DNA of 30,298 bases, from positions 2,507,788-2,538,085 of the forward strand of contig CP070746.1 in assembly GCA_020348305.1 (NCBI GenBank). Reading direction: 5' to 3'. This DNA comes from Desulfobacterales bacterium (GTDB taxonomy: Bacteria; Desulfobacterota; Desulfobacteria; Desulfobacterales; JAHEIW01). Below are positions 12,541 through 27,232 of this stretch, in pieces (position 1 is the first letter of the stretch; each line of letters starts with the position of its first letter). The notes under the pieces are model-generated. The model saw only the letters and a list, made by a program, of their open reading frames with translations. It was not told the DNA's origin and did not search any database. Position numbers and translations under genes: made by a program.

Positions 12541-12610
12541 CCTGGCCGCACAAACCGTACCTCAAATAGCAAAAAAATTAGCATAAAAAAAGGGGTGGCC
12601 ATAATAAAAT

Positions 12611-12705
12611 TATCTGGTTATCTACAATAGCCAAGTGAGCATAATAATATAAAAGATTATCTTACGTTTAAAAAAGCCTACTTGGTCTTTCTGGATAACC
12701 AGATA
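12611..12705. promoter_or_regulatory. Pair of 12-bp inverted-repeat boxes in the divergent gltS-like/lrp promoter region
   Basis: TATCTGGTTATC at 12611-12622 and its exact reverse complement GATAACCAGATA at 12694-12705, 71 bp apart, in the AT-rich 282-bp divergent intergenic region. Confidence 0.4.
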
Positions 12706-12822
12706 GAATTAATTAATAAATATCGCAAATTCTTTTACAAATGTCAAGATTTCAATAAAATATCTTTACATTTATAAAAATTTTTTTTATATTCAGTTAT
12801 ATATTAGAAAGGAGGAGTAACG

Positions 12823-13263
12823 GTGAACGAAGTGGAACTAAAGATTATTAGAGCGCTTAACGAGAATTCCAGAAAAAGCTTTCGCGAAATAGCCAAGGAG
12901 GTCAAGACGTCTACTCCTGTGGTGATCAATAAAATTAAAAAGCTCGAAGAAATAGGTGCCATAAAGGGCTATATTCCTGTATTGGACCCGGAATACTTCG
13001 GCTATACCCTCATGGCCGTGGTTGCCTTGCGCATTTCTCATGGGAAGCTTATTGAAGCACAGGAAAAGATCGCAGAAGATCCGCATACGCTGGCTATTTA
13101 TGATGTGACCGGAGAGTGGGATTCCATAGTAATTGCCCATTTTAAAGGAAGGAAAGATTTGAACAATTTTATCAAGAATATTCTTGTCCATAACAATGTA
13201 GATAGAACAGTGACCCATATCGTACTCAATGTCGTCAAGGACGAACGCAGACTCGTCGTCTGA
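12823..13263 (+). CDS. lrp: Lrp/AsnC-family transcriptional regulator
   Basis: 146-aa ORF with a GTG start preceded by AAAGGAGGAG. The N-terminus has an HTH (IIRALNENSRKSFREIAKEVKTSTPVVINKIKKLEE) and the C-terminus an AsnC-type ligand-binding (RAM) domain. Confidence 0.85.
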   Translation: MNEVELKIIRALNENSRKSFREIAKEVKTSTPVVINKIKKLEEIGAIKGYIPVLDPEYFGYTLMAVVALRISHGKLIEAQEKIAEDPHTLAIYDVTGEWDSIVIAHFKGRKDLNNFIKNILVHNNVDRTVTHIVLNVVKDERRLVV

Positions 13264-13468
13264 TATTTCCATTCCCACATTCACCAAGCATCGGTAATAA
13301 CGATTAAATTATGGGGTTGGGTGAAGCACTGATTGCCCGATGAAATGAATACATTTTTGTCATTTTTTTAATTTAAAAATACAAAATTGTAACTTACTGT
13401 TTTTATTCAAAGCTACGGCCAAACTTTAACGCATTGAATTTATTAATATTTCTGAGCTGTATCACTGA

Positions 13469-13622: not shown

Positions 13623-13967
13623 ATGAAATTGGTCGTAGCGATGATTCAGCCCCATAAATTGACTGATGTCAAGCAGGCATTATTTGACGAAGAGGTCTAT
13701 GCCATGACGGTCAGCAATGCCTTGGGATGTGGCAGCACGATGGGGTATATGGAAACCTACAGAGGTGTGAGGCAAGAAGTAAATCTTCTGAAAAAAGTGC
13801 GACTTGAAATTGCCGTCAATGATGATTTCGTTGAACGCATCATTGAGGCAATTATAAAAGGCGCACGAACGGGTAACATGGGAGAATGCCATATCCCAAA
13901 TTGCAAGAGAAAACCTCGAAGGGAGTTTGAGCGGAGTTTTGGCCACATTATCGCCGGAAGAAGCTAA
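13623..13967 (+). pseudogene. P-II (GlnB-like) signal-transduction protein, C-terminally truncated and running out of frame into a flotillin fragment
   Basis: The first roughly 85 aa align with P-II ([20 protein letters not shown]...TYRG...[30 protein letters not shown]). After TG the canonical B-loop/C-terminus (GDGKIFV...RIRTGE) is replaced by [26 protein letters not shown], which is the flotillin reading frame read out of frame. A GGAGG RBS and a sigma-54 promoter lie upstream. Confidence 0.6.
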
Positions 13968-14784
13968 CAGTAATCGGTTGGAGTTTGCCGAAAAAATCGT
14001 ACAACAGACCAGAGGTGATCTCGGTCGCCTGGGTTTAGTGCTGGATACGTTTAAAATCAAACATCTCTCTGATAATGAAGGCTATCTGGATGCCATCGGT
14101 CGCAAGAAAAATGCTGAAGTCAGAAAGGATGTCGAAATCGCGGAAACCAATGCGCAAGCTGAATCAAGACAAGTGTCCGCCGAGGCCAAGCGTATCGGAA
14201 ATGTGGCCGAAGCGGAGGCCAACGTAACCATTGTCGAAGCCGAAAACAAGCTACGGATAAAAAAAGCGGACCTGGATGCCGAAGCCCAACGCATAGAAGC
14301 CAAAGCAAAGGTTGCCGGCAACATCGCCAGGGTCGAAGAAGAACAGAAACTGGAAACCCAAAGAGTTGCCTTGAATCAGAGTAAGTATGAGGCTGACGTC
14401 GTGGTGCCGGCTCGGGCAGAAAAAGAAGCCATGGAATTGAAAGCCATTGGCGACGCATCCACTATCGTAGAAAACGGCAAAGCGACAGCAGAAGCAGTGA
14501 ATCTGATGCGTCAGGAATGGGAAAAAGAAGATACCCGGGAGCTTTTCTTAATCCAGCAACTTCCGGATATCCTCGATAAAGTCACCAGTGTGGTTTCCGA
14601 AAATCTTGCCATCGAAAAGGTTACGATACTGGACAGCGGCAACGGGCAGGGCATGCCCACCTATGTCAAAGGCATTGCCGGTTCTATCGTTGCTATTTTC
14701 GAGCAGATTAAAAACGCCACCGGCCTGGATGTACCTGAAATCCTGAGAGCCAAAGGAAAATCCACGGCTGAAATTACCGGATAG
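13858..14784 (+). pseudogene. Flotillin (FloT/YuaG-like SPFH family) lacking about the N-terminal 130 aa (TM segment plus first half of the SPFH domain)
   Basis: Frame 1 is open from 13858. The translation ...[83 protein letters not shown]... aligns with the middle of B. subtilis FloT (EAREVLEGHLRSILGSMTVEEIY...[37 protein letters not shown]). It is followed by an EA-rich coiled-coil and a C-terminal ...ILDSGNGQG... tail. There is no ATG; the track used TTG at 13927. Confidence 0.65.
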
Positions 14785-14798
14785 AAAGGGAATCGAAC

Positions 14799-16130
14799 AT
14801 GCTGAAGCTGAAATCAAAAAAGGATGTCCTAAAAGTTGTTAAGGACCAGGATGTAAGTTTTATTCAAATCTGGTTCACGGATATTTTGGGAATTTTAAAA
14901 TCATTTGCCATCACGCCTTCTGAACTGGAGGGTGCTCTCACCGAAGGCATGGGATTTGACGGCTCTTCGATTGAAGGGTTTGCCCGCATCGAAGAAAGTG
15001 ACATGATCGCCATGCCGGATCCTACGACATTTCAGTTTCTACCCTGGCGCCCCAAGGATCGCCCGGTGGCCCGCATGTTCTGCGATATTCTGACACCGGA
15101 TGGCTCCCACTATGCCGGTGATCCACGCTATGTATTTAAGCGGGCGCTTCAAAAGGCGGCTGATAAAGGCTACAAATTTTTCATCGGACCTGAACTGGAA
15201 TTTTTCTATTTTGAAAGCAGTGAAAATCCAAAATTTATTGATATGGGAGGCTATTTTGATTCACGACCGCTTGATCTGGCCAGTGACTTGCGCAGAGACA
15301 CGATATTTATGCTCCAGCGCATGGGGATCCAGGTTGAATACAGCCACCATGAGGTGGCACCCAGCCAGCATGAAATCGATTTGCGATTTGATGAAGGTCT
15401 TAAAATGGCGGATAAGACCATGACCTATCGCGTGGTTGTCAAAGAGGTTGCCCGCAAACAAGGCGTCTATGCCACCTTTATGCCCAAGCCCATCTTCGGA
15501 GAAAACGGCAGTGGCATGCATGTTCACCAATCGCTTTTTCGCGGTGATATGAACGCCTTTTATGATCCATCAGATAAATACCATTTATCCGAAATGGCCA
15601 AATCCTATATTGCCGGCATCATGCGACACGCGCGGGAAATTGTCGGGGTTACCAATCAATGGGTGAACTCTTACAAGCGTCTGGTGCCAGGCTATGAAGC
15701 GCCCGTATATATCTCCTGGGCGCGGCGCAACCGCTCGACAATGATACGGGTACCCATGTACAAGCCCGGCAAGGAAGTTGCCACTCGCATTGAGTTTCGT
15801 TCACCGGATCCGGCCTGCAATCCTTATCTGGCTTTTGCAGTTATGCTGATGGCCGGTTTAAAAGGAGTTGAACAGAACTACGCGCTGCCGGATCCGATCG
15901 AAGAGGATATTTACGAGATGGATGAAGCGGCAAGGGAAAAGGCTGGCATTGTTTCGTTGCCGGGAAGTCTTTTTGAAGCCATTCAGGAGCTGGAACAAAG
16001 CGAGGTGGTTCGAGAAACCCTTGGGGACCACATCTTCCAGCAATTCATTGCCAACAAGAAAATCGAATGGAACCGCTTCCGAACGCACGTCAGCAGGTAC
16101 GAGATCGAAAACTATCTTCCCAAGCTTTAA
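14799..16130 (+). CDS. glnA: Glutamine synthetase type I-alpha (443 aa)
   Basis: Canonical GS motifs: [51 protein letters not shown]...EFRSPDPACNPYLAF. It has no adenylylation-loop insertion. Confidence 0.9.
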   Translation: MLKLKSKKDVLKVVKDQDVSFIQIWFTDILGILKSFAITPSELEGALTEGMGFDGSSIEGFARIEESDMIAMPDPTTFQFLPWRPKDRPVARMFCDILTPDGSHYAGDPRYVFKRALQKAADKGYKFFIGPELEFFYFESSENPKFIDMGGYFDSRPLDLASDLRRDTIFMLQRMGIQVEYSHHEVAPSQHEIDLRFDEGLKMADKTMTYRVVVKEVARKQGVYATFMPKPIFGENGSGMHVHQSLFRGDMNAFYDPSDKYHLSEMAKSYIAGIMRHAREIVGVTNQWVNSYKRLVPGYEAPVYISWARRNRSTMIRVPMYKPGKEVATRIEFRSPDPACNPYLAFAVMLMAGLKGVEQNYALPDPIEEDIYEMDEAAREKAGIVSLPGSLFEAIQELEQSEVVRETLGDHIFQQFIANKKIEWNRFRTHVSRYEIENYLPKL

Positions 16131-16343: not shown

Positions 16344-16712
<369 letters not shown>

Positions 16713-16769: not shown

Positions 16770-18182
16770 ATGACACCCAAAGAAGTCTTAGATATGGCTA
16801 AGGAAAACGGAGCCAAGGTGGTTGACTTGCGCTTTATGGATTTTCCGGGCGTCTGGCAGCACTTTAGTGTGCCGATCAACGAATTGGATGAATCGAGTTT
16901 TGAAGATGGGTATGGGTTTGACGGTTCCAGTATTCGTGGCTGGCAGCCGATTCACGCCAGCGATATGCTGGTAGTCCCCGATGCGGATACCGCCAAAATG
17001 GACCCATTTTATGAAGCGCCAACGCTGGTGTTAATCGGCAACATCGTTGATCCGGTAACCCGGGAGCCTTACACCCGGGACCCGAGAAATATTGCTCAAA
17101 AAGCCGAAGCCTATCTAAAAAGCACGGGTATTGGTGATATCGCATATTTCGGCCCTGAGCCCGAATTTTTCATCTTTGACGACATTCGCTTTGAGTCCAC
17201 CCGGTTTGGCGCCTTTTATGAAATTGACTCCATTGAAGGGGTCTGGAACTCCGGTCGTGAGGAAATGCCCAACCTGGGCTATAAACCGCGACACAAAGAA
17301 GGATATTTCCCGGTTCCACCCATGGACAAGTTTCAGGATCTGAGAACGGAGATGGTTTTGACCTTGGAAAATCTGGGGATCGCAACCGAAGCCCAGCATC
17401 ATGAAGTCGCCACCGCCGGCCAGGCAGAAATCGATATGCGTTTTATGCCGCTGCTCCAGATGGCCGATCAACTCATGTGGTTCAAATATGTGCTTAAAAA
17501 TGTCGCCTATCGCAATAACCATACAGTGACCTTCATGCCCAAACCGATTTTCGAAGACAACGGAACCGGCATGCACACCCATATCAGCATTTGGAAAGAA
17601 GACCAGCCGCTGTTTGCCGGCGATAAATATGCCGGTCTTTCCCAGGAGGCATTGTATGCCATCGGCGGCATTTTAACCCACTGCAAGGCGCTATGCGCCT
17701 TTACCAACCCGACCACCAATTCCTATAAACGATTGGTGCCGGGTTTTGAAGCACCGGTGAACTTGGCCTACTCCAGCCGCAACCGCAGTGCGGCGATTCG
17801 AATCCCAATGTATTCCCCGTCACCGAAAACAAAACGCATTGAGTTCCGCACCCCGGATCCTTCCTGCAACGGCTATTTAGCATTTTCAGCCATGCTGATG
17901 GCGGTCATCGATGGTATCCGGAACAAGATCGATCCCGGCGATCCCCTGGATAAAAACATTTACAACCTGCCGCCCGAAGAACTGGCTGAAATTCCATCGG
18001 CGCCCGGTTCCTTGGAAGAGGCGCTGGCCTCTTTAAAAGATGACCAGGAATTCCTTTTAAAAGGCGATGTCTTTACCTCGGATGCCATCGATATGTGGAT
18101 CGAATACAAAATCGAAAATGAGGTCAACGACGTCAAATTGCGACCCCACCCGCATGAGTTCTTTCTGTATTTTGATATTTAA
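16770..18182 (+). CDS. glnA: Glutamine synthetase type I-beta (470 aa) with adenylylation-site motif
   Basis: GS motifs [65 protein letters not shown], plus a NIYNLPPEE adenylylation-type Tyr segment. The RBS is GGGAGG. Confidence 0.9.
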
Positions 18183-18241: not shown

Positions 18242-19307
18242 GGGACGTTGTTGACTGAATTGACTTAGTTTCTCGCCCGTTTTATGATCTTTGATATGGC
18301 CGAGGTGGAAACGCCCAGTCGCCGAGCAACTTCGGCTAAAGCAACCCCTTGGTTCTTTACCAACCCAATCGCAATCCGAGCTCGAATCCCTGATACCTCT
18401 TTGCGCCGGCTGCCGGATCTTAATTCTTCAATTGATACTTTTCCATTTTTGCACAATTTGGCTATCAATTCATCAATTTTTTGATGATGCTCCTTCACCG
18501 GCAGTTGATATTTGATTTGGCTTTCAGCTTCTTTTATGACCCGCTTGACAAATTCACCACTGCCTAAAATCCGCTCATCACTCAACTCGCGATCTGCTGA
18601 GCGGCGCAACGCTTTCACCGCCGACCAACCACCCAAGGACCGTATTAATCCCCCACCAACAAGGTCCGGGCGACGCCCTTCATTTATTCCCTTTTGAACA
18701 TATTTGCGATAAGCTTTTTTAGCCTCGGCCTGCTTGGGCCCAAACCATTTCAATACATAGTCTCGATTCTGCCAGTCATTTTTAACGCGACCCATTAAAA
18801 CGCTGTGACCACACCAGCGGTAGCGGTCTAATTGTGCTAAAGTTTTAACTAATTTAGCCCGCAAAGGATTTAAATGGATATATCGTACCAATTCTTTAAA
18901 ATAGGCATCTTCTTCACAGATAATCGACTTATAGCGGTTTTGAAATAAATGACCCCAGCGTCGATGACGCCGATTGTAAAAAATCGCATAGCCCGTCAGC
19001 AACCGTCGCATAAATCCCGAAAGCCCATACTCAGAGCTGCGTAAAAGAATGTGCGCATGATTGCTCATCAGTGCCCAGGCATATATGGCGGTTTTGGTAC
19101 CTACGGCAAGCTTTGCCAAGCGCCTTACAAAATCTTTTCGATCCGTCACATCATTGACAATTTTGCCTCTTTCTATTCCTCGTACCATCACATGATGCAA
19201 TGTTCCAGGGGCATCCAATCTGGCTCGCCGCGGCATCTTCCCCCTCCTCCTTTAAAATTCTAACCATTTGCATAACATAAATTAGTCAACTCAGTCAACA
19301 ACGTCCC
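18242..19307 (-). mobile_element. Compact IS-like/REPtron-like element: Y1 transposase gene bracketed by about 26-bp imperfect inverted repeats
   Basis: Left repeat 18242-18268 is GGGACGTTGTTGACTGAATTGACTTAG. The reverse complement of 19282-19307 is GGGACGTTGTTGACTGAGTTGACTAA (24/26 identical). Each repeat contains a tandem TTGACT-N3-TTGACT. The left repeat overlaps the transposase stop codon. Confidence 0.55.
18265..19236 (-). CDS. Y1 HUH transposase (IS200-like/RAYT-like) with C-terminal HTH (DnaA-C-like) domain
   Basis: 323-aa ORF with a HUH motif (ALMSNHAHILL) and a catalytic Tyr context (GHLFQNRYKS), typical of the IS200/IS605 TnpA and REP-associated tyrosine transposase superfamily. 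The C-terminal ...LVKNQGVALAEVARRLGVSTSAISKIIKRA is an HTH. Confidence 0.75.
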   Translation of the reverse strand: MPRRARLDAPGTLHHVMVRGIERGKIVNDVTDRKDFVRRLAKLAVGTKTAIYAWALMSNHAHILLRSSEYGLSGFMRRLLTGYAIFYNRRHRRWGHLFQNRYKSIICEEDAYFKELVRYIHLNPLRAKLVKTLAQLDRYRWCGHSVLMGRVKNDWQNRDYVLKWFGPKQAEAKKAYRKYVQKGINEGRRPDLVGGGLIRSLGGWSAVKALRRSADRELSDERILGSGEFVKRVIKEAESQIKYQLPVKEHHQKIDELIAKLCKNGKVSIEELRSGSRRKEVSGIRARIAIGLVKNQGVALAEVARRLGVSTSAISKIIKRARN

Positions 19308-19351
19308 TAAACAATTCCCTACACAGCTACACAGCCCTAAGACAGATTCCC

Positions 19352-19450
19352 TATTTCATCGAATACATGTATAATCACAAGCTACTTCACTCCGCTATTG
19401 GTTATCGTCCTCAATGTGAATTTGAGATGATGCTGGAATCAACTCCAAAT
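19352..19450 (+). pseudogene. Remnant of the 3' end of a DDE (IS3/rve-type) transposase gene
   Basis: Frame-2 translation ...YFIEYMYNHKLLHSAIGYRPQCEFEMMLESTPNPCQNTLIT* carries the conserved C-terminal tail of integrase-core transposases (YN..R.HSalGY.sP.eFE). The upstream reading frame degenerates immediately at the IS-like element boundary. Confidence 0.4.
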
Positions 19451-19546
19451 CCCTGTCAAAACACTCTGATCACATAGCTGTGATCTTTGCAGTTTTATGG
19501 GGTCATTCCAACCTGCCCTTTAATGTGCGACCCTTATTTTTCGTTC

Positions 19547-20155
19547 TTATTTCCATGACTCGTCTTTATACAGCCCATTTCTGCTTATTTCTAGCGCTGA
19601 TTTTGCTAAATCCATATCTTTCTTAAGTTCAGAGTTCGGATTTAAATTAAATGCCTTTCTGTAAGCTTCGTAAGATTTAGCATAGTCCCCAATTTTGTAA
19701 TAGCAGTATGCCACATTTTCCAATATTAAAGAATCATCTCTTTCTAAATTTAAACTTTTTTCAAAATACGATATAGCCTCACGGTATTCATTTCTTATTA
19801 CGTTAATACGTCCCAAATAGTCTATCGCAGCTTTGTTATTAGGATTAGTTTCGAGAACCTTTCTAAAATATTCTTGCGATTCAATATACCGTTGTGCGTT
19901 GAATGAGGCCTTGGCAAGACCATACATAATCTTTATGTTATTGAAACCATATTGCATTAACTTTTTGTATTCATCTATTGCCTCTCTATTTTTACCTTCA
20001 GATCTGTATAACTCGCCCAACAAAAAACGAGCGTGATAATCCTCAGGTTTATGATTTATCCTCTTTATACAGAACTCTTTAACAGAATGTATTGAAAAAT
20101 TAAATCTAGGGACGAGATATATCAACAACCGGATATAAAAAATATATTTTTTCAT
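19547..20155 (-). CDS. Secreted or membrane-anchored TPR-repeat protein; candidate immunity protein for the upstream RHS toxin
   Basis: 202-aa ORF, very AT-rich. The N-terminus is hydrophobic (MKKYIFYIRLLIYLVP), followed by at least four TPR-like repeats (...AIDEYKKLMQYGFNN..., ...YFRKVLETNPNNKAAIDYLG..., ...AISYFEKSLNLERDD..., ...YEAYRKAFNLNPNS...). It starts 14 bp after the RHS gene stop on the same strand. Confidence 0.7.
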   Translation of the reverse strand: MKKYIFYIRLLIYLVPRFNFSIHSVKEFCIKRINHKPEDYHARFLLGELYRSEGKNREAIDEYKKLMQYGFNNIKIMYGLAKASFNAQRYIESQEYFRKVLETNPNNKAAIDYLGRINVIRNEYREAISYFEKSLNLERDDSLILENVAYCYYKIGDYAKSYEAYRKAFNLNPNSELKKDMDLAKSALEISRNGLYKDESWK

Positions 20156-20169
20156 ATTCAGTAAAACCT

Positions 20170-23100
20170 CTAGGGATTATGAAAAGCTGAAAATATCTTC
20201 GCTGCAAACTTCTTAGCTTGCCACTTAAACTTTTTCCATTTCGACCACTTGTCATAATCATTTGGCTCTTTCATAAAATCTGGATCATTAGGATCATTTG
20301 AGGGATAACTCCAACCAGGCATTCCTGGTGCATCCCATAAGGGACCATATTCATCTCCCATTCCTCTAGATTCATATGCTGGGCAGGCACTACTGTCCTC
20401 ACCACGAGCCATCAAGATATCGAATAGAATATCTTCAGCCTCATCCTCACTGGGGATATAAGGAATATCAGGTAAATTTACGTCAGGAAGATCAGCACCA
20501 GTTGCGTACCCTAAAGCTCCTATAAGTAGCGGTGCACCATATAAAAATGCTCGAAGAGCAGCCTGTCCTCCAAAAAGCCCTCTTGGATCAACCGCATTAA
20601 TTGGATCATTTAAACAATACCCATAAAGATCCGTATCACCTCCAGCAAAAAAAATAGGATCTTTGGCGGTCCATCGCCCTGTGTCGGGATCATAGTCGCG
20701 GAAACCAAACCTAACTAGGCCTGTATCCCGGTCGTCAAGCCCTCCTGCAAATCCAAAAGGCACCTCAATTGTCGGATTGGTATCATTTATTATATTGCCA
20801 AATGAATCATACTCAATTAATTCTACCACATTGCCGGAAGCATCTGCAACAACCCGCAACGAGCCCACCTGGTCATAAGTAAGAAAATAGGTTGTCCCAC
20901 CGCTTTTCATAGCCACCGGCATGCGATCATCAGCATACTCGAAGCGCATCAGTAGATTATTAGAACCATCATAGACGGCCAGCAGACGCGTTAGACCCTC
21001 CCACAGGTATTTCTCGACAACAACTCCATCTACCTTCTTGGCGATTCGTCTTCCCAGTGGATCATGGAGATATTCGATAACGCGACCATCGGACAAATCA
21101 ACGCTTAGTAGCTCTCCACGAGAAGAATATTTATAGTTGGTCACGTCATCTCCATCTTTCTTAGTAGTTAAAAAGCCGTCTAGATTATAAGAATAGCTCA
21201 TAGATCCAGCCGATAAGAGATGATCCCCAGCCGAATAACTAAAGCTCCTTACAGAAAATCCTCTCAGCGTGTTTGTTTCAGAGATTCGTGTTCCACTGAG
21301 ATCATAGCCATACGCTTCAACTAAATTACCGTCTTTGGTTACAGTCAAGAGTCTTCCCATGGAGTCATATGTATAAGCATAATTTGTGGTAACACTACCA
21401 ACCGTCTCGGTTTTGTTTATGATTCTTCCGTTATCATCGCGGGTTAATATCCACGTGGTTACATTTTGGCTACCAACCGTAAAGTTCTGCCCTTCCACCT
21501 CACCGTAACCATTGAATGCGCGAGAAAGACTCAACGCACCGCCGGTAACCGCTTCAGGCAATCCATTCTGAGTATTACGAGAAATTGAATAGGAACCTGC
21601 AGCGGTTAATAGCCCGTCATTATCATAATCATAACTAACGGTGCCTCCCGCATAGGTAAAACTGGAAACATCAAAGTCGTTATTGTAGGTGTAATTTAAT
21701 GATTGATTCAACGTGCCGCTCAACATCTCCAGTGTGACCAGCTTTCCATCATAGCCGTAAGTAATTGATTCGGTGTCTTTTGTGATTGATTCAACTTTTG
21801 TTCCACACAGATAGGTAAAATCAATGTTGCCTTCCGGTGTCTGAATTTGAGAAAGTCTAGTCTTGTCCCAGATGTTGAATATCTGTTTGCCGGAAGGGAA
21901 GTTTGTCTGGATCAAACGCCTGTCCTTATCATACACATAACTGTAACTCCCGCTCAATGGCGTCGTATAAGCGCGATATAGATTGACGCTGTTAAATCCA
22001 AAACCGTGGTTGATATCCACCGGATTAGTCAACACCGTCATATTGCCGTTTTTGTCATAAGTAAATCCCACATAGCCATCGTCCGGGCGGCTTATCCCGG
22101 TTATCCGCCCAACCGGATCATAGCTGTAAGTTGTGGTGTAATTCTCTGGATTGGTGATGGATTCAGGAAATCCCTGTGCATTATAAGCAAATGTGGTTTG
22201 CCTGGCATTGGTGCTGATGGAGGTCAACCTTCCCCTTGAATCGTAGCCATATGCTGTGGAATGAAGGCCAGGCACGCTAACACTTTCGACTAGCAAAGTA
22301 GCAGGATCGTAAAGCGATGTTATTGACCTACCCTCAGGTGAAGTGACTAATTTCCGCGCCTGAAGGGTATTATGTTCAAGTGTCGTGGTTTTGCCATTGA
22401 TCGTTACCGTCTCTGTGATCATGTCCGGTGCTTCATCAGCGTCCGTATCTTGATAAGCCTTATCCCTCAGCGTCACCCATTCTAGTCCTGAAGGGGCACT
22501 TTCTCTCATTTCTTTGACGTATTTATACTTATACTCATAATCCACATCGTATTTGAATTCAAGCTCCATTCCACAGGGCAAGGACTTATTTACGGTTAAT
22601 CCATCTGCTGATTGAGTAAATAATGTTTGAGCTCCCGTGGGATCTGTTATGGTTGAGCTGTAGGCACCGGTGGAATCTGTGCGGTCCAGATAGGAATTAA
22701 GGTTGCCCTCCGCTGTTAGAACCTGGATTAATATATCTCCATTCTCATTTACAATTCTGTTGTAATTCCAATGACCTCCTTCCTCGTCATATACGTCAAT
22801 CAATCCACTGTATTCGAAGCGGTTGCCTTCGGGTTCCACCTTTGCAGTTATCAGACCACCCTCGGCATACTCAAAAGTGTAGTAACTGTCATCGGGATAC
22901 GTGATCCAGGTAAGGTGATTGTTTGCATCAATTGTCAAACTGGTATAAATTCCATCCGGAGAAATGATTGAGGTCGGCGAACCGCTACTATCCCTGGAAA
23001 TGATGGTTTGGTTGCCGAATCGGTCGGTAATCGAAGCCAATCTTCCATCCGAGTCATATCCAAAATCATAAAGGGTTACCCCGGTATCAAGGTCAATGGT

Positions 23101-26100
23101 TGTCTTGTGACGTCCGGAACTTGACGCGATGTAGCCCAGGCCGTTCTCCTCAGCAAATGTTAGATCCCCCTCGCTCGTTATGTTGGCGAAAGCTGAAGGA
23201 GGGGCAACCTTCCGGATACGTCCATTATTATCAGCTATGTAAATGTTGTTTAGGGCATCCACTGCTACGTCCATAATCGTATTGAATAAGGCTTCGGTGG
23301 CGGGTCCACCGTCGCCGCCGTAAGTAAATTCTGAGTCGGATTTGCCGGCCACCGTGCTGATTATTCCTTTCGTATTAACTTTCCTCACTACACGATTCTT
23401 AAAACCTGCTATATATAGATCTCCTGCCGAATCAACGGCTAAACCACGAGGGTTATAAATACTCGCTTCAGTGGCAGGTCCGCCATCTCCACTGTAGCCC
23501 GGAGTGCCGTTTCCAGCTACGGTCGTGATGATACCACTCTTATCCACTTTACGAACGCGGTGGTTGTTGACGTCGGCAATATATAGATTGCCCTCCAAGT
23601 CGACAGCCATGCCTAATGGATATTTAAATTGGGCGTCAGTGGCAAACCCGCCATCTCCGCTATAACCATTATTTCCATTGCCAGCCACAGTGGTTATGAT
23701 GCCGCCTGTGTCCACTTTCCGAATGCACTGATTCCCTGAATCGGAAATATACAGATTTCCCGACGCATCCACAGCAACGTCATACGGATGGTTAAGTGAT
23801 GCTTCGGTAGCAGATCCTCCATCTCCACTATAGGCCGGAGTGGCAGTTCCAGCCACGGTGGTGATAATGCCACTCTTATCCACCTTACGAACGCGGTTGT
23901 TATAGTAATCCGCTATGTAAATATTACCAGAGGCGTCTGCGGTAACCCCGGTTGGATAGTATAGTGACGCTTCATTTGCAGGACCACCATCTCCACTATA
24001 GCCCGGAGTGCTGGTTCCAGCTACGGTAGTGATGATGCCGCCACTATCCACCTTGCGAATACAGTGATTACCGAAATCTGCTATATAAAGGTTGCCTTCA
24101 GCATCCAAATAAACACTGTAGGGTTGTGTAATCTGAGCTTCAGTAGCAGATCCGCCATCACCGCTATAGCCATTCGTTCCGTTTCCGGCCATGGTGTCAA
24201 CGATGGCAGTGTTATTTCTTGTTTGCGTCCCGTCTCCCTTGTGCAAGGTAGATAAGTCCATGAGGTTCACTTGATGATGGGCGGACAATGTCCAGCCCTC
24301 GGCGATAACACCACCTCCTTGAGCGGAAATAGGAGGTATTGTTATATCAACATCGTTTCGCTTCCATGAAGTTATCTCCATCCTCGCTATAACTGCGGTT
24401 TCATCTCTACCTGCCTGGGCAAATGCTCTGATCAATTCCCGAGGCTCTAAATAGACTATATCGTACACGAAGCCTATTTCCACATGTGCTGTTGTAGAAC
24501 CAATAACACGCCTTCCTAAATGGTCCTTTCCATCCCATCCAAATTCAGCCGACTGGTTTGGAAGGGGGTCTATTATTTGTTCGTAAACACGGCCTGCCAC
24601 CTCGACTCTTGCGATGATCCGTTTCAGACTTTCGGGAACTGTTTCTCCGCTTGCAGGAACCGTGATTCTATAAAGGTAGCCTGGCACTCTGTTAATTGCA
24701 TAATGAAGGGTAAGATCTGTGCCGGGAATGGGGATGTCCTCGTGGAAAACTCTGCTGCGTGCTTCTACAAAAGAGCCAAGTCGTTTTTGGCAATCATCTT
24801 CTTCATTTTTTTGCTCATCAATTGCAACTTCGCCATTTGGATTAGGAGGAATAGAATCTGTTGGCGGGCCAAAAGGCCAGTTGATATCCCAAGGTGTGAA
24901 ATGGGTGATGGCCACTCGCCAGAAGGAAAAACCGGGTGCGTATCTTCCGGGATCATAAAGTCCGGTCACCTCATCGTTAAAAAAACCATTGCCATTGAGA
25001 TCATCCGGCTGATCATCGCCATCTGCGTCCAGAGCGTCTACGCTACCGTCAGCGTCCGTGTCGAGAAGTTTTACCACAACACCATTGTCAGCAGGCACCC
25101 AAACACCTCTATCTCGATCGTAATAACCAACAGGAGCCGCCATGCCCACATCAAAACCCAAGAAATTATCTACCCAGATAATAACAGGCTTTTCAAACCT
25201 TATTCGTTGTGCCCCATCTACGCTGAGTTCCACGCAATAGGTGTATGCGGAGTTAGGCGGCAACTTGGCCGGCATGGACTGCTCGGTGGCGAATTCGGTG
25301 GCACGGGCCGTAATAGTAGTAAGTTCTTGGATGTCATTTCCATTTTCATCCACTAAATAGGCCCGGTTGTCCCCTGTAAATACTATAGAGGCCGAGCGAC
25401 TGCCGAACTCATCAGTCACTGGGGTGCTCTGGTGAGTGACCACCGTGTCCGGATTGCCGTCAAATGTCAGTATGGTGGCAGCCGGATCTTCGGCGATCAT
25501 CTGAATTGTCTCTGGAATCGCAATGTCGTTCCAGGTGACGTAGACCTTCCGCTGGCCCGGGACCAAGCCATCTTTTTGATACACAACGGTCATCGTTGCC
25601 CCACCTTCAACCGGAATGGAAAACCGACCTTCTGCATCGGTGGTGACTGTGCCGTATTCCGGATGACTATGTATGGTTATGGCAACATCTGCTATGGGAG
25701 TTTCTGCTAAATCCTGAACCAAACCGGTGATAACCGAAAACCGTTTTGGATCATATTCTTCAACTGTTGCATCCGGCGGTACAAGATCTTCATACTGTTG
25801 CCCGAAAGATCCCTCAGGTTGGAGCTCGGGATTGCCGGCCACATGAACCGTAACCCTGTCACCGATTGTGCCATAAGGACCACTTGCAGTGATGCTATAG
25901 ACAGTGGTTTGAGTGGGCGATACAGCATACGTACCATTTGCTTGTACGATACCGATGCCGGGCTCGATGAAGCAAAAATCAGCATTGGTGGAATTCCAGG
26001 CAAGGTTAGCTGTCTCTCCAACTGAGATAGTCTTAGGATTCGCAGCGATGCTGACGGTTATGGGCGCCTCGCCGAAACCGCTATTTTCGTCCACCTCGAC

Positions 26101-26949
26101 ACTCGATCCGATCTGGACGTTTTTCCCGATAAACGCGCCCTCGGCAACGCTCCCCTGCTTGATCAAAATGGTGCCGTTGGGTGCATAGATGTTTGCCTTT
26201 AGACTGTTGTTGCAGCCAATTGTTGCCGCTTTAGGGGTGGCTCCCAAGTTGCCCCTGGTGCCGTTGATGCCGTTGACATAGATGCGGATGTCCTTGGCAC
26301 TGATACCTGATTTATCAGCCGGACCGATGACCGCGTTTAGTCCCGGCTCCAGCCGGTTGTTAATAATCAGGTCGGTGGGTGCTTGAAAAAACACCTTTGC
26401 ATTGCGATAGCCCAGATCAAGGTTTTCAAAATGATAGGTACCGCCGGTCAAAATGAGCGTGGCATTTGCTCTCACCAGAATCTCACCGTAAGCACCAGGC
26501 TCCAGCACAAGGGTTTCACCCCGGGGGAGGTCATGATTTTCAGTCCCGGGAGCCGGTGCAGGGAAATCCGGCAAGGATATATCCAGGGGCATTTGTAAGG
26601 GGGTATATTCGTTGCCCCTGATAGTGCCGAGGTTCATCAGCTCATTGTAATGGACATCGTCTACTGAAGCATTTATTTTGATTTTGACAGTGTCTGCATA
26701 GATCGACGTACCATCCGGCATGTATACCTTTTTGCCGATGATTACCTCTGACTGGGGGCCAGGCCATAGACCAAGGCTTGCATTTTTGACACCGATCTTG
26801 CCACTTTTAACCGTAGCACCTTGACGAATCCAGATACTATCTGTGGCAAATACTGAAAATGAAGAGAGGTCGTTGATCGCATGGGAGAATTCTGGAAAGG
26901 AAGGAAAAATTACAAGCACAGCAAGCAGGCAGAAAATCTTTCTTAGCAT
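20170..26949 (-). CDS. Teneurin-like YD-repeat/RHS polymorphic toxin (about 2259 aa from the probable start; the long track ORF begins 30 codons further upstream at 27039)
   Basis: The probable start is the ATG at 26949, preceded by GGAGG 5 nt upstream, giving a signal peptide MLRKIFCLLAVLVIFPSFPEFSHA. Domains in order: a CarbopepD_reg/TTR-like domain (LVQDLAETPIADVAITIHSHPEYGTVTTDAEGRFSIPVEGG); an Asp-rich Ca-binding-like stretch (DTDADGSVDALDADGDDQPDDLNGNG); at least 6 NHL repeats (GYSGDGGxATEA...GNLYIAD..N.RVRKVD...GIITTVAG); many YD/RHS repeats; an RHS core ending in ...NAVDPRGLFGG (DPxGL autoproteolysis motif); then a 131-aa C-terminal domain with no recognisable motif. Confidence 0.9.
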   Translation of the reverse strand: MLRKIFCLLAVLVIFPSFPEFSHAINDLSSFSVFATDSIWIRQGATVKSGKIGVKNASLGLWPGPQSEVIIGKKVYMPDGTSIYADTVKIKINASVDDVHYNELMNLGTIRGNEYTPLQMPLDISLPDFPAPAPGTENHDLPRGETLVLEPGAYGEILVRANATLILTGGTYHFENLDLGYRNAKVFFQAPTDLIINNRLEPGLNAVIGPADKSGISAKDIRIYVNGINGTRGNLGATPKAATIGCNNSLKANIYAPNGTILIKQGSVAEGAFIGKNVQIGSSVEVDENSGFGEAPITVSIAANPKTISVGETANLAWNSTNADFCFIEPGIGIVQANGTYAVSPTQTTVYSITASGPYGTIGDRVTVHVAGNPELQPEGSFGQQYEDLVPPDATVEEYDPKRFSVITGLVQDLAETPIADVAITIHSHPEYGTVTTDAEGRFSIPVEGGATMTVVYQKDGLVPGQRKVYVTWNDIAIPETIQMIAEDPAATILTFDGNPDTVVTHQSTPVTDEFGSRSASIVFTGDNRAYLVDENGNDIQELTTITARATEFATEQSMPAKLPPNSAYTYCVELSVDGAQRIRFEKPVIIWVDNFLGFDVGMAAPVGYYDRDRGVWVPADNGVVVKLLDTDADGSVDALDADGDDQPDDLNGNGFFNDEVTGLYDPGRYAPGFSFWRVAITHFTPWDINWPFGPPTDSIPPNPNGEVAIDEQKNEEDDCQKRLGSFVEARSRVFHEDIPIPGTDLTLHYAINRVPGYLYRITVPASGETVPESLKRIIARVEVAGRVYEQIIDPLPNQSAEFGWDGKDHLGRRVIGSTTAHVEIGFVYDIVYLEPRELIRAFAQAGRDETAVIARMEITSWKRNDVDITIPPISAQGGGVIAEGWTLSAHHQVNLMDLSTLHKGDGTQTRNNTAIVDTMAGNGTNGYSGDGGSATEAQITQPYSVYLDAEGNLYIADFGNHCIRKVDSGGIITTVAGTSTPGYSGDGGPANEASLYYPTGVTADASGNIYIADYYNNRVRKVDKSGIITTVAGTATPAYSGDGGSATEASLNHPYDVAVDASGNLYISDSGNQCIRKVDTGGIITTVAGNGNNGYSGDGGFATDAQFKYPLGMAVDLEGNLYIADVNNHRVRKVDKSGIITTVAGNGTPGYSGDGGPATEASIYNPRGLAVDSAGDLYIAGFKNRVVRKVNTKGIISTVAGKSDSEFTYGGDGGPATEALFNTIMDVAVDALNNIYIADNNGRIRKVAPPSAFANITSEGDLTFAEENGLGYIASSSGRHKTTIDLDTGVTLYDFGYDSDGRLASITDRFGNQTIISRDSSGSPTSIISPDGIYTSLTIDANNHLTWITYPDDSYYTFEYAEGGLITAKVEPEGNRFEYSGLIDVYDEEGGHWNYNRIVNENGDILIQVLTAEGNLNSYLDRTDSTGAYSSTITDPTGAQTLFTQSADGLTVNKSLPCGMELEFKYDVDYEYKYKYVKEMRESAPSGLEWVTLRDKAYQDTDADEAPDMITETVTINGKTTTLEHNTLQARKLVTSPEGRSITSLYDPATLLVESVSVPGLHSTAYGYDSRGRLTSISTNARQTTFAYNAQGFPESITNPENYTTTYSYDPVGRITGISRPDDGYVGFTYDKNGNMTVLTNPVDINHGFGFNSVNLYRAYTTPLSGSYSYVYDKDRRLIQTNFPSGKQIFNIWDKTRLSQIQTPEGNIDFTYLCGTKVESITKDTESITYGYDGKLVTLEMLSGTLNQSLNYTYNNDFDVSSFTYAGGTVSYDYDNDGLLTAAGSYSISRNTQNGLPEAVTGGALSLSRAFNGYGEVEGQNFTVGSQNVTTWILTRDDNGRIINKTETVGSVTTNYAYTYDSMGRLLTVTKDGNLVEAYGYDLSGTRISETNTLRGFSVRSFSYSAGDHLLSAGSMSYSYNLDGFLTTKKDGDDVTNYKYSSRGELLSVDLSDGRVIEYLHDPLGRRIAKKVDGVVVEKYLWEGLTRLLAVYDGSNNLLMRFEYADDRMPVAMKSGGTTYFLTYDQVGSLRVVADASGNVVELIEYDSFGNIINDTNPTIEVPFGFAGGLDDRDTGLVRFGFRDYDPDTGRWTAKDPIFFAGGDTDLYGYCLNDPINAVDPRGLFGGQAALRAFLYGAPLLIGALGYATGADLPDVNLPDIPYIPSEDEAEDILFDILMARGEDSSACPAYESRGMGDEYGPLWDAPGMPGWSYPSNDPNDPDFMKEPNDYDKWSKWKKFKWQAKKFAAKIFSAFHNP

Positions 26950-27232
26950 GATGAACCTCCAGCAACTTTTAATTAACTTTGAACTAATGCGGTATATGAT
27001 GTCAAACAGCCTAAAGAAGAAACAGGGATAAGTTGACATAATGCCAATTGATTTGGGTAGGTTTGGACTGAAAAAATAAAGATCTTTTGGAGTAATTTAA
27101 GAAAGACCTGTCATGACTGTTTGCGATCACAACACCCCCTCCGCGAGACCTTGAAGGGTATTGACAGCATGAACTCCGTAGTTAGCTTTGTTTTAGTTAA
27201 TGGAGCGTTGGATGAACCCTTCCAGCGTCCAT

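Follow-up and report, generated by a model that had tools for sequence, protein, structure and literature searches.

A low-GC TPR gene tied to a rare C-terminal tail of teneurin-like RHS proteins is a candidate Rhs immunity gene

The RHS-TPR locus

The DNA analysed here, called the window throughout, is a stretch of 30,298 nucleotides from a Desulfobacterales genome (contig CP070746.1, positions 2,507,788 to 2,538,085). On its minus strand it carries a gene for a teneurin-like RHS/YD polymorphic toxin (20170..27039, 2289 aa as listed), directly followed by a short gene for a tetratricopeptide repeat (TPR) protein (19547..20155). The latter is an ATG-to-stop open reading frame (ORF) of 202 aa, which we characterised by its Pfam match to TPR_2, its GC content, an AlphaFold2 (AF2) model and its ratio of nonsynonymous to synonymous substitutions (dN/dS). 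We read it as the putative cognate immunity gene of the toxin, and the evidence that carries this reading is that the gene family keeps the company of one type of RHS C-terminal tail.

The domains recognised by Pfam in the RHS protein are TEN_NHL (4.5e-48), TEN_YD-shell (5.2e-40), RHS_repeat (1.1e-34), TTR_TEN1-4 and FN-plug. A canonical Sec signal peptide opens at Met31 (26949); it reads MLRKIFCLLAVLVIFPSFPEFSHA, followed by |IN, and its longest uncharged run is 11 residues. Because of this signal, the true start of the RHS protein is probably M31 at 26949 and not the listed start at 27039. The RHS proteins with related tails at two other loci, L003 and L011, have canonical Sec signals too, with uncharged runs of up to 17 residues. 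Type VI or type VII secretion genes are not present in the window, and there is no type III context.

The RHS stop codon and the TPR start codon lie 14 nt apart (20156..20169, minus strand). A Shine-Dalgarno-like AGAGG (20167-20171) overlaps the RHS stop codon TAG (20170-20172) and lies 11 nt before the TPR ATG, and no promoter-like or terminator-like site was found between the two genes. An earlier annotation made from the letters alone (the sequence-only reading) had called the TPR gene translationally coupled to the toxin gene. The common strand, the short gap, the position of AGAGG at the stop codon and the uninterrupted junction agree with this, but the two ORFs do not overlap in the window, and we therefore consider coupling plausible. 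Among relatives, the arrangement ranges from an ATGA overlap (L013, L031) to a distance of 44 nt (L028).

An internal promoter for the TPR gene was considered and set aside, as the total of sigma-70-like sites is below shuffle expectation. One such site, TTGAGT-16-TATAAT with 10/12 matches (20789-20816, minus strand), falls within the RHS gene, some 200 nt before the DPRGL motif that ends the RHS shell, and might allow the toxin tip and the immunity gene to be transcribed on their own.

The TPR gene differs sharply from its surroundings in base composition. Its GC content is 31.9% (36.5, 27.6 and 31.5% at the first, second and third codon positions), compared to a window mean of 47.2% and to ~42-44% for the next-lowest ORFs. 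The claim that it is the most AT-rich ORF of the window thus holds: it has the lowest GC of all ORFs, and its 609-nt span is the GC minimum among all spans of that length (z = -3.7), with equally low values only in spans starting at 19544-19694. The AT-rich run quoted in the sequence-only reading, atgaaaaaatatattttttatatccgg, is the 5′ end of this ORF. The low GC affects all three codon positions and reflects both a protein rich in Lys, Tyr, Ile, Asn and Glu and the choice of codons. The low-GC block begins within the last ~90 nt of the RHS gene and extends to the TPR stop codon. Homologous TPR genes elsewhere are also AT-rich (GC 0.28-0.37 versus 0.44-0.55 for their flanks). The immunity end of Rhs loci is classically lower in GC than the core, and this is what is seen in the window and in every related locus. 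The sole other region of the window that nears the GC of the TPR gene (~0.33-0.39) is at 12500-13300; it is intergenic or regulatory DNA around an Lrp/AsnC-type regulator gene (12823-13263, plus strand), which lies between a glutamate-synthase-like gene and the P-II/glnA genes.

The C-terminal domain of the RHS protein comprises 139 aa, counted from the DPRGL end of the shell (aa 2151), and consists of three parts: a hydrophobic Gly/Ala-rich helix, a very acidic stretch and a conserved tail, C..YGPLWDAPGMPGWSYPSNDPNDPDFMKEPNDYDKWSKWKKFKWQAKKFAAKIFSAFHNP. From the translation and the AF2 model, a pre-toxin linker can be delimited after DPRGL (aa 2151-2218; 20386..20589, minus strand), in which the hydrophobic helix lies at ~20500-20580 (AF2 helix 4-30, low confidence). 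The toxin tail itself, as defined by alignments, covers aa 2219-2289 (20173..20385, minus strand) and has the form C..YGPLWDAPGMPGW..P.NDPNDPDFMKEP.DYDKWSKWKKFKWQAKKFAAKIFSAFHNP. Across the tail family the pattern is C..YGPLW.APGMPGW..DP.DPDF..KWSKWKK.KW..KK.., with C, P, L, A, P, G, G, P, D, P, W, W and K as the invariant or near-invariant positions. Its acidic Asp/Pro-rich segment has a net charge of -5 and is kept as DP.DPD in both tail subfamilies, and its last ~23 residues form a +7 amphipathic helix (AF2 helix 117-137 of the 139-aa domain, at a predicted local distance difference test score (pLDDT) of 85-90). The AF2 model of the whole toxin domain is of low confidence (pLDDT 64).

An exhaustive HMMER scan of 1.84e9 representative proteins found the tail in 17 proteins, at the C-terminus in each case; where the sequence before it is present, the tail is preceded by an RHS DPxGL motif and by a segment that is hydrophobic or rich in Gly. 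No match to the tail was found in Pfam (E <= 10), NCBIfam, PADLOC or PDB profile searches. The linker of the window protein, LLIGALGYATG.D.PD..PDIPYIPSEDEAEDIL, is shared with two other proteins, P0009 (locus L012) and P0010 (L011), at 76-85% identity, and is joined there to other tails. Finding one linker on different tails implies that recombination occurs inside the C-terminal domain as well, and not only at the DPxGL boundary. The hydrophobic start of the C-terminal domain, which had been taken as consistent with a toxin acting in the periplasm or membrane, is real, but it belongs to a separate linker that is also fused to other tails with other downstream genes.

The TPR protein and its family

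That the downstream gene encodes a TPR protein is well supported. The Pfam matches to TPR_2 (E = 6.9e-21, 73 bits, cut-off 27), TPR_1 (3.2e-16, 58.8 bits, cut-off 27.8) and TPR_8 (3.6e-16, 58.3 bits, cut-off 25.7) span residues 47-174 and all exceed their gathering scores. An AF2 model built on five homologues has a mean pLDDT of 90.9 and a predicted template modelling score of 0.80, and contains eleven helices. Four canonical 34-residue repeats occupy residues 38-173 (19637..20044, minus strand), as judged from the AF2 helices, Pfam and Foldseek. Their helix pairs are 40-52/56-68, 74-86/90-103, 108-120/124-137 and 142-154/158-171, so that the A-helices start at residues 40, 74, 108 and 142, with an exact period of 34 residues. 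A capping helix follows the repeats at residues 175-196. Foldseek searches against the PDB return consensus-TPR proteins, OGT, MamA and PilF (E-values of 1e-9 to 1e-6, TM-scores of ~0.6-0.75). According to the model, the protein is a right-handed alpha-solenoid of the Pfam TPR clan with five hairpins, namely the four canonical TPRs and an N-terminal helical hairpin, closed by the C-terminal cap.

We also considered the N-terminal hairpin as a degenerate fifth TPR and rejected this idea. A family-repeat hidden Markov model built from 24 repeats of six members gives residues 1-37 a score of -0.1 bits, and the sole basis for a fifth repeat is that helix 22-35 of the AF2 model stands in the 34-residue register.

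At NCBI, an identical protein bears the name 'MAG: tetratricopeptide repeat protein [Desulfobacterales bacterium]', and the comparison with better-known TPR and TPR-like families gave no closer assignment. Sel1 repeats (Pfam PF08238, 36-44 residues) were not among the 23 Pfam families found at E <= 0.01. The LcrH/SycD model TIGR02552 gives 36.1 bits against an NCBIfam equivalog cut-off of 104.8, and the MamA model NF040959 gives 54 bits against an equivalog cut-off of 200; the structural likeness to MamA is generic to TPR proteins. When screened against known toxin or immunity families by profile searches (Pfam, NCBIfam, PADLOC and PDB), the TPR protein gave only generic sub-threshold matches. 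The gene is under purifying selection, with dN/dS values of ~0.12-0.22 in four homologue pairs.

We then examined the N-terminus, which the sequence-only reading had taken for a signal or anchor sequence. Codons 1-19 (20099..20155, minus strand; MKKYIFYIRLLIYLVPRFN) encode a hydrophobic to amphipathic helix and a turn, as seen from AF2 helix 2-14 and from conservation; the helix reads MKKYIFYIRLLIYLVPRF and its hydrophobic stretch MKKYIFYIRLLIYLVPRFNFS. The assessment was heuristic, using charge-free runs, Kyte-Doolittle hydropathy, the Hessa scale and the reading of motifs. Uninterrupted by charged or strongly polar residues, the sequence runs for at most 6-7 positions, compared to 11-17 in the RHS signals. 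Midway along the stretch, residue 9 is an Arg or Lys in every member of TPR subfamily 1, and one member, P0004, also has Asp13; in subfamily 2 the N-terminus is ..VILGFKIIARLI.., with a Lys and an Arg four residues apart and both within 12 positions. Subfamily 1 has a further Arg or Lys at position 17. A lipobox ([LVI][ASTVI][GAS]C) was not found in the TPR protein, the only N-terminal cysteine being C29 in KEFC, a position kept as F-C in the homologues. A cleavage site, IHS|VK, is formally possible, but it has R17 before it and K26 at +2, and it falls inside the predicted helix 22-35. The best 19-residue window has a mean Kyte-Doolittle value of 1.2-1.6 in most members and a summed Hessa energy of +4.6 to +9.5 kcal/mol, and a membrane-spanning segment of ~19 residues, as in Tsi5 or EC93-type CdiI, was not found in the protein.

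In its conservation, too, this segment resembles the rest of the protein: the mean pairwise identity is 65% for residues 1-19 and 65% for the TPR core, and Y4, F6 and Y7 are invariant across five aligned homologues. Invariant aromatic residues and conservation at the level of the core are unusual for a signal peptide. In summary, the charge-free run of 6-7, the basic residue 9, the missing lipobox and the lack of a clean cleavage site speak against a signal or anchor sequence, and the N-terminus, unlike the three RHS Sec signals and conserved like the core, does not bear out an exported immunity protein and the periplasmic toxin deduced from it. We read this N-terminus as a sequence-specific amphipathic helix, which could serve as a solenoid cap, an in-plane membrane tether or an interaction surface. 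We regard export of the TPR protein as unlikely, while giving it appreciable weight.

The TPR family is small. Single-sequence and profile searches of 5.8e9 proteins gave ~15 members, below which only generic TPR proteins follow. The members of subfamily 1 are 46-68% identical to the window protein, and those of subfamily 2 are 25-28% identical, with equal length and a like N-terminal pattern. We read the gene surroundings of the 11 distinct members, out of ~15, for which DNA was available. At all 11 loci, the same-strand gene directly upstream ends in the toxin tail family, on varied RHS backbones and in an orphan module; the flanks differ between these loci and no insertion sequence (IS) elements are common to them. 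A twelfth member, P0020, is preceded by a 2108-aa gene.

The proteins sharing the linker of the window protein form a natural swap series. In the window, the linker is followed by an FHNP-type tail and then by TPR subfamily 1; at L011, it is followed by an AGNP-type tail and then by TPR subfamily 2; and at L012, it is followed by an unrelated Cys-rich tail and then by a gene whose visible N-terminus lies outside the TPR family. It follows that the TPR gene tracks the tail, and not the RHS core or the hydrophobic linker. Each of the two diverged TPR subfamilies goes with one of two diverged tail subfamilies, and pairwise identities of tails and TPR proteins correlate strongly over eight loci (r = 0.93, Mantel p ~0.001) as well as within subfamily 1 (r = 0.79, p ~0.003). 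At the level of sequence, this co-divergence shows that tail and TPR gene are inherited as a unit; by itself, it is no proof of contact.

At four loci (L003-L006), the toxin is an orphan module with several frame-breaking indels relative to the intact modules of L030 and L022, while the TPR ORF is intact (dN/dS 0.19). The same defect is found in four assemblies, so that the indels are not a sequencing error of one read set. The retention of the TPR gene beside a broken toxin fits an immunity gene, because an antidote stays useful without the toxin, whereas a secretion helper would not. The broken module lies upstream of the TPR homologue P0005, at 9374-10000 of L003 and likewise in L004-L006.

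Family members away from an RHS C-terminus were not found in 185,579 species-representative genomes, 72,556 plasmids and viral contigs. The species-representative genomes hold only generic TPR proteins (22-30% identical), plasmid matches are at 28.5% identity or less, and viral contigs gave none. Widespread homologues without RHS genes would have told against an immunity role; what we found instead was RHS adjacency at every locus read and no member out of context.

Immunity, its alternatives and a possible mechanism

The proposal that the TPR protein is an immunity factor is thus upheld by genomic association, that is, by the linkage at 11/11 loci, the absence of members off-context and the co-divergence of r = 0.93. 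The immunity genes of Rhs/YD polymorphic toxins (RhsI) have been catalogued (Zhang et al. 2012, PMC3482391), and the TPR gene resembles them in being small, directly 3′ of the toxin tip on the same strand, and lower in GC than the RHS core, as well as in moving with the toxin tip as a cassette and in being kept in orphan modules. In sequence terms, the locus matches an Rhs toxin/immunity cassette in position, toxin-tip linkage, orphan retention and low GC. It differs from the catalogued RhsI genes in that neither the tail nor the TPR family matches a Tox, Ntox or Imm model of Pfam, and in that the function is here inferred. Taking these likenesses together, the TPR protein is likely an immunity protein, whatever the compartment in which it acts. 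That it is the cognate immunity protein of the ~70-aa RHS tail and also acts in a non-exported location is the reading that we favour, if only by a little.

Several observations weigh against this reading. The case for immunity is one of association, and linkage alone would also yield co-divergence. A full-length RHS protein of L003 has a distant relative of the tail with no TPR gene directly after it. As the RHS carriers are Sec-exported, the toxin should, from first principles, first fold in the periplasm of the producer, which would favour an immunity protein facing the periplasm. The N-terminal stretch of the TPR protein is hydrophobic (Kyte-Doolittle 11-residue maximum 2.25), and AF2 helix 2-14 reaches a pLDDT of only 64-70, so that a non-canonical signal or anchor is possible. 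Finally, the score of the N-terminal hairpin in the family-repeat model is matched by 83 of 300 shuffled sequences.

In an alternative along the lines of the sequence-only reading, the TPR protein is an immunity protein that is exported or anchored, and its TPR domain, on the periplasmic side, intercepts a toxin whose attack on the inner membrane comes from without. All of the evidence for immunity applies to it equally, and the Sec signals of the RHS carriers would place the toxin in the periplasm or outside the producer. The N-terminus begins with MKK and a hydrophobic stretch, whose Kyte-Doolittle maximum over 11 residues is 2.25-2.68 in several members, the lower AF2 confidence of its helix is often seen with detached signal helices, and the toxin domain opens with a transmembrane-like helix. 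Membrane-targeting Rhs toxins with a membrane-located immunity protein are also known, for example Tse5/Tsi5 (PMC9637101). However, a basic residue breaks the hydrophobic core in every member (in P0004 together with an Asp, and in subfamily 2 as a Lys and an Arg), and an uncharged run of 6-7 is short beside the 11-17 found in RHS signals of organisms of the same kinds. A lipobox is missing, any cleavage site would have the basic residues R17 and K26 on either side, and a cut near S24 would fall in the confidently predicted helix 22-35. The summed Hessa energy of ~+7 kcal/mol is too unfavourable for a membrane anchor, and the N-terminus, with its invariant aromatics, is conserved like a mature domain. 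On balance, we hold an exported immunity protein to be an unlikely but serious alternative.

The strict co-occurrence of TPR gene and tail would suit a chaperone as well as an antidote. TPR class II chaperones of type III secretion (LcrH/SycD) are small and consist entirely of TPRs; their concave groove holds partners that are hydrophobic or amphipathic and insert into membranes. A protein of this style could act as a dedicated chaperone or holdase that keeps the C-terminal domain soluble until RHS export and shell closure, and the TPR protein, itself small (~200 aa), adjoins a protein with hydrophobic and amphipathic helices and has a weak similarity of 36 bits to the LcrH/SycD model. It may indeed work in a like manner, but this score is far under the 104.8-bit cut-off and the type III context is missing, and both gene order and orphan retention fit immunity instead: a position downstream of the toxin is the canonical one for Rhs immunity genes, and an intact and constrained TPR gene stands beside an orphan toxin whose reading frame is broken and for which a chaperone can be of no use. 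A role as chaperone in place of immunity is therefore improbable, although one protein could fill both roles, since immunity by sequestration resembles the action of a holdase. A chance insertion, in which an unrelated TPR gene was acquired horizontally and came to lie by the RHS gene, for instance with IS debris, would account for a GC content sharply unlike that of the neighbours, for the transposase remnants immediately downstream and for a protein that is generic at the Pfam level. Yet the arrangement recurs at 11/11 independent loci with different flanks and no IS elements in common, the low-GC block already begins within the toxin gene, and no family member was found outside the context of the RHS tail. 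The conserved synteny effectively refutes such a chance insertion, which we hold to be highly improbable.

Returning to a non-exported immunity protein, we considered how it might act on the tail. The tail shows no catalytic-looking set of invariant residues and is preceded by the hydrophobic Gly/Ala-rich helix; for these reasons, the toxin is probably membrane-active (depolarising or pore-forming) rather than enzymatic. The tail and the TPR gene would form one mobile AT-rich cassette that recombines onto RHS backbones and survives as orphan modules, and the TPR protein would neutralise the toxin stoichiometrically, with the conserved tail held in the TPR groove. TPR family proteins are mostly basic (isoelectric point of ~9 in the majority, range 6.8-9.5). 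Hence an acidic groove binding the +7 toxin helix was dropped as a simple model, and recognition of ..HNP-COOH by a carboxylate clamp is weakened in that some tails end in HNPC, HNPF or LGSN. With mostly basic TPR proteins and a charge of +7 on the last toxin helix, the acidic Asp/Pro-rich stretch (APGMPGW..NDPNDPDF) is the better candidate for a groove ligand, perhaps together with the adjoining Trp/Lys-rich amphipathic helix; candidate tail peptides for TPR binding would be APGMPGWSYPSNDPNDPDFMKEP and DKWSKWKKFKWQAKKFAAKIFSAFHNP. The TPR protein would stay in the cytoplasm, possibly at the inner membrane face by means of its conserved amphipathic N-terminal helix.

Put together, Sec-exported RHS cocoons may carry a non-enzymatic, membrane-active peptide toxin whose hydrophobic helix brings the cationic tail to the inner leaflet, where a chaperone-like TPR protein, placed at the cytoplasmic face by its amphipathic N-terminal helix, clamps the Asp/Pro-rich peptide and perhaps the amphipathic helix. 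We offer this detailed scheme tentatively, as it is doubtful that every part of it holds. If true, it would be a mode of immunity by peptide capture not yet described for Rhs toxins.

Parts of this scheme have parallels in known systems. Repeat-type immunity proteins have been listed as Imm-Ank, Imm-HEAT and Imm-LRR, besides TPR repeats fused to immunity domains (PMC3482391). Stand-alone TPR solenoids, TPR-Imm1 to TPR-Imm4, occur in the S8 polymorphic toxin system (S8-PTS) of Gram-positive bacteria and were predicted from gene neighbourhood to neutralise toxins via their concave groove or loops (PMC9424270). They serve S8-PTS toxins with BECR and other enzymatic domains and were compared here by description only, whereas the present TPR protein follows a Sec-exported teneurin-like RHS protein with a tail that looks non-enzymatic, in Desulfobacterales-type metagenomes. 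Protection has been shown experimentally for the Sel1-repeat immunity protein Sel1E of K. pneumoniae, which acts against VgrG4 (PMC7108748). Sel1E and P. aeruginosa PA5087 (PDB 5JKP) are likewise TPR-like alpha-solenoids encoded beside a toxin; however, they consist of Sel1 repeats (36-38 residues) and belong to type VI loci, in contrast to the 34-residue period and the missing type VI context here.

Closer to the proposed mechanism is ExiAB of S. aureus, a soluble cytoplasmic immunity pair that counters the membrane-depolarising EsxX by sequestering a short toxin motif in its binding groove (PMC12744356). The pair offers a mechanistic analogue for the proposed capture of a small membrane-active toxin from the cytoplasmic side, but its fold differs from TPR, and EsxX uses an LXG domain for its delivery by type VII secretion. 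This toxin is also met by the membrane immunity proteins ExiCD, which act against attack from outside (PMC12744356); a second immunity gene is not evident in the window. The pore-forming Tse5-CT of P. aeruginosa is Rhs-borne, and Tsi5, which confers immunity to it, is an integral membrane protein for which two transmembrane segments are predicted (PMC9637101). Tse5-CT, which acts on the cytoplasmic membrane, is similar to the present case as an Rhs C-terminal domain without predicted enzymatic activity and with its cognate immunity gene downstream. It differs in that Tsi5 is a membrane protein, while the TPR protein is a solenoid without a credible transmembrane segment, and in that Tse5 depends on type VI secretion for its delivery, while the RHS protein of the window bears a Sec signal; the searches showed no sequence similarity between the two systems.

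Immunity proteins of the TPR and Sel1 types are thus already known, as are Rhs toxins that act on membranes, and no long-standing question is opened by this locus. What appears to be new is a rare, unannotated toxin tail with a dedicated TPR immunity family on Sec-type teneurin-like RHS proteins from sediment-type metagenomes. If the pairing is true, it adds to the Rhs repertoire a defined and very rare toxin/immunity family, with ~17 tails and ~15 TPR representatives, from poorly studied sediment bacteria of the sulfate-reducer type. The pairing would also argue for naming the TPR genes of this family Rhs immunity protein and not, generically, 'tetratricopeptide repeat protein'. With an unusually small, apparently non-enzymatic toxin and a plain TPR solenoid, it would be a compact model of how repeat proteins neutralise peptide-like membrane-active toxins, and it would bear on the delivery of cargo by RHS cocoons that are exported by Sec and not by type VI secretion.

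Neighbouring genes in the window and at related loci

Immediately downstream of the TPR gene, the C-terminal remnant of a DDE transposase lies on the plus strand (19334..19477); its translation contains ..IPYFIEYMYNHKLLHSAIGYRPQCEFE.. and ..YNHKLLHSAIGYRPQCEFE.., a motif from which we take it to be IS3-like. It is followed by an intact gene for a Y1/IS200-like transposase with a C-terminal helix-turn-helix (18265-19236, minus strand; Y1_Tnp 2.1e-11). The remnant and the Y1 gene mark the downstream edge of the RHS-TPR cassette.

The rest of the window is housekeeping in character, with two glnA and two P-II genes, the Lrp/AsnC regulator, a sigma-54 activator, MTHFR, FlpD and Hdr-like genes. The glutamine synthetase genes (14799-16130 and 16770-18182, plus strand) are preceded by P-II genes at 13623-13967 and 16374-16712, respectively, and an SPFH/flotillin-like ORF (13927-14784) lies between the P-II and glutamine synthetase genes.

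At related loci, two further kinds of gene were seen. A protein of ~156 aa with an HExxH motif (HEIDHH or HEIGHH) is encoded at L003 (8233-8703, minus strand), L008 (1875-2420, plus strand) and L024 (5564-6040, plus strand), in most cases immediately ahead of an orphan RHS fragment; no Pfam family matches it, and it is absent from the window. A toxin-antitoxin pair of the RelB/ParE type lies directly downstream of the subfamily-2 TPR gene at L024 (4467-4927, plus strand), and also at L025 and L026.

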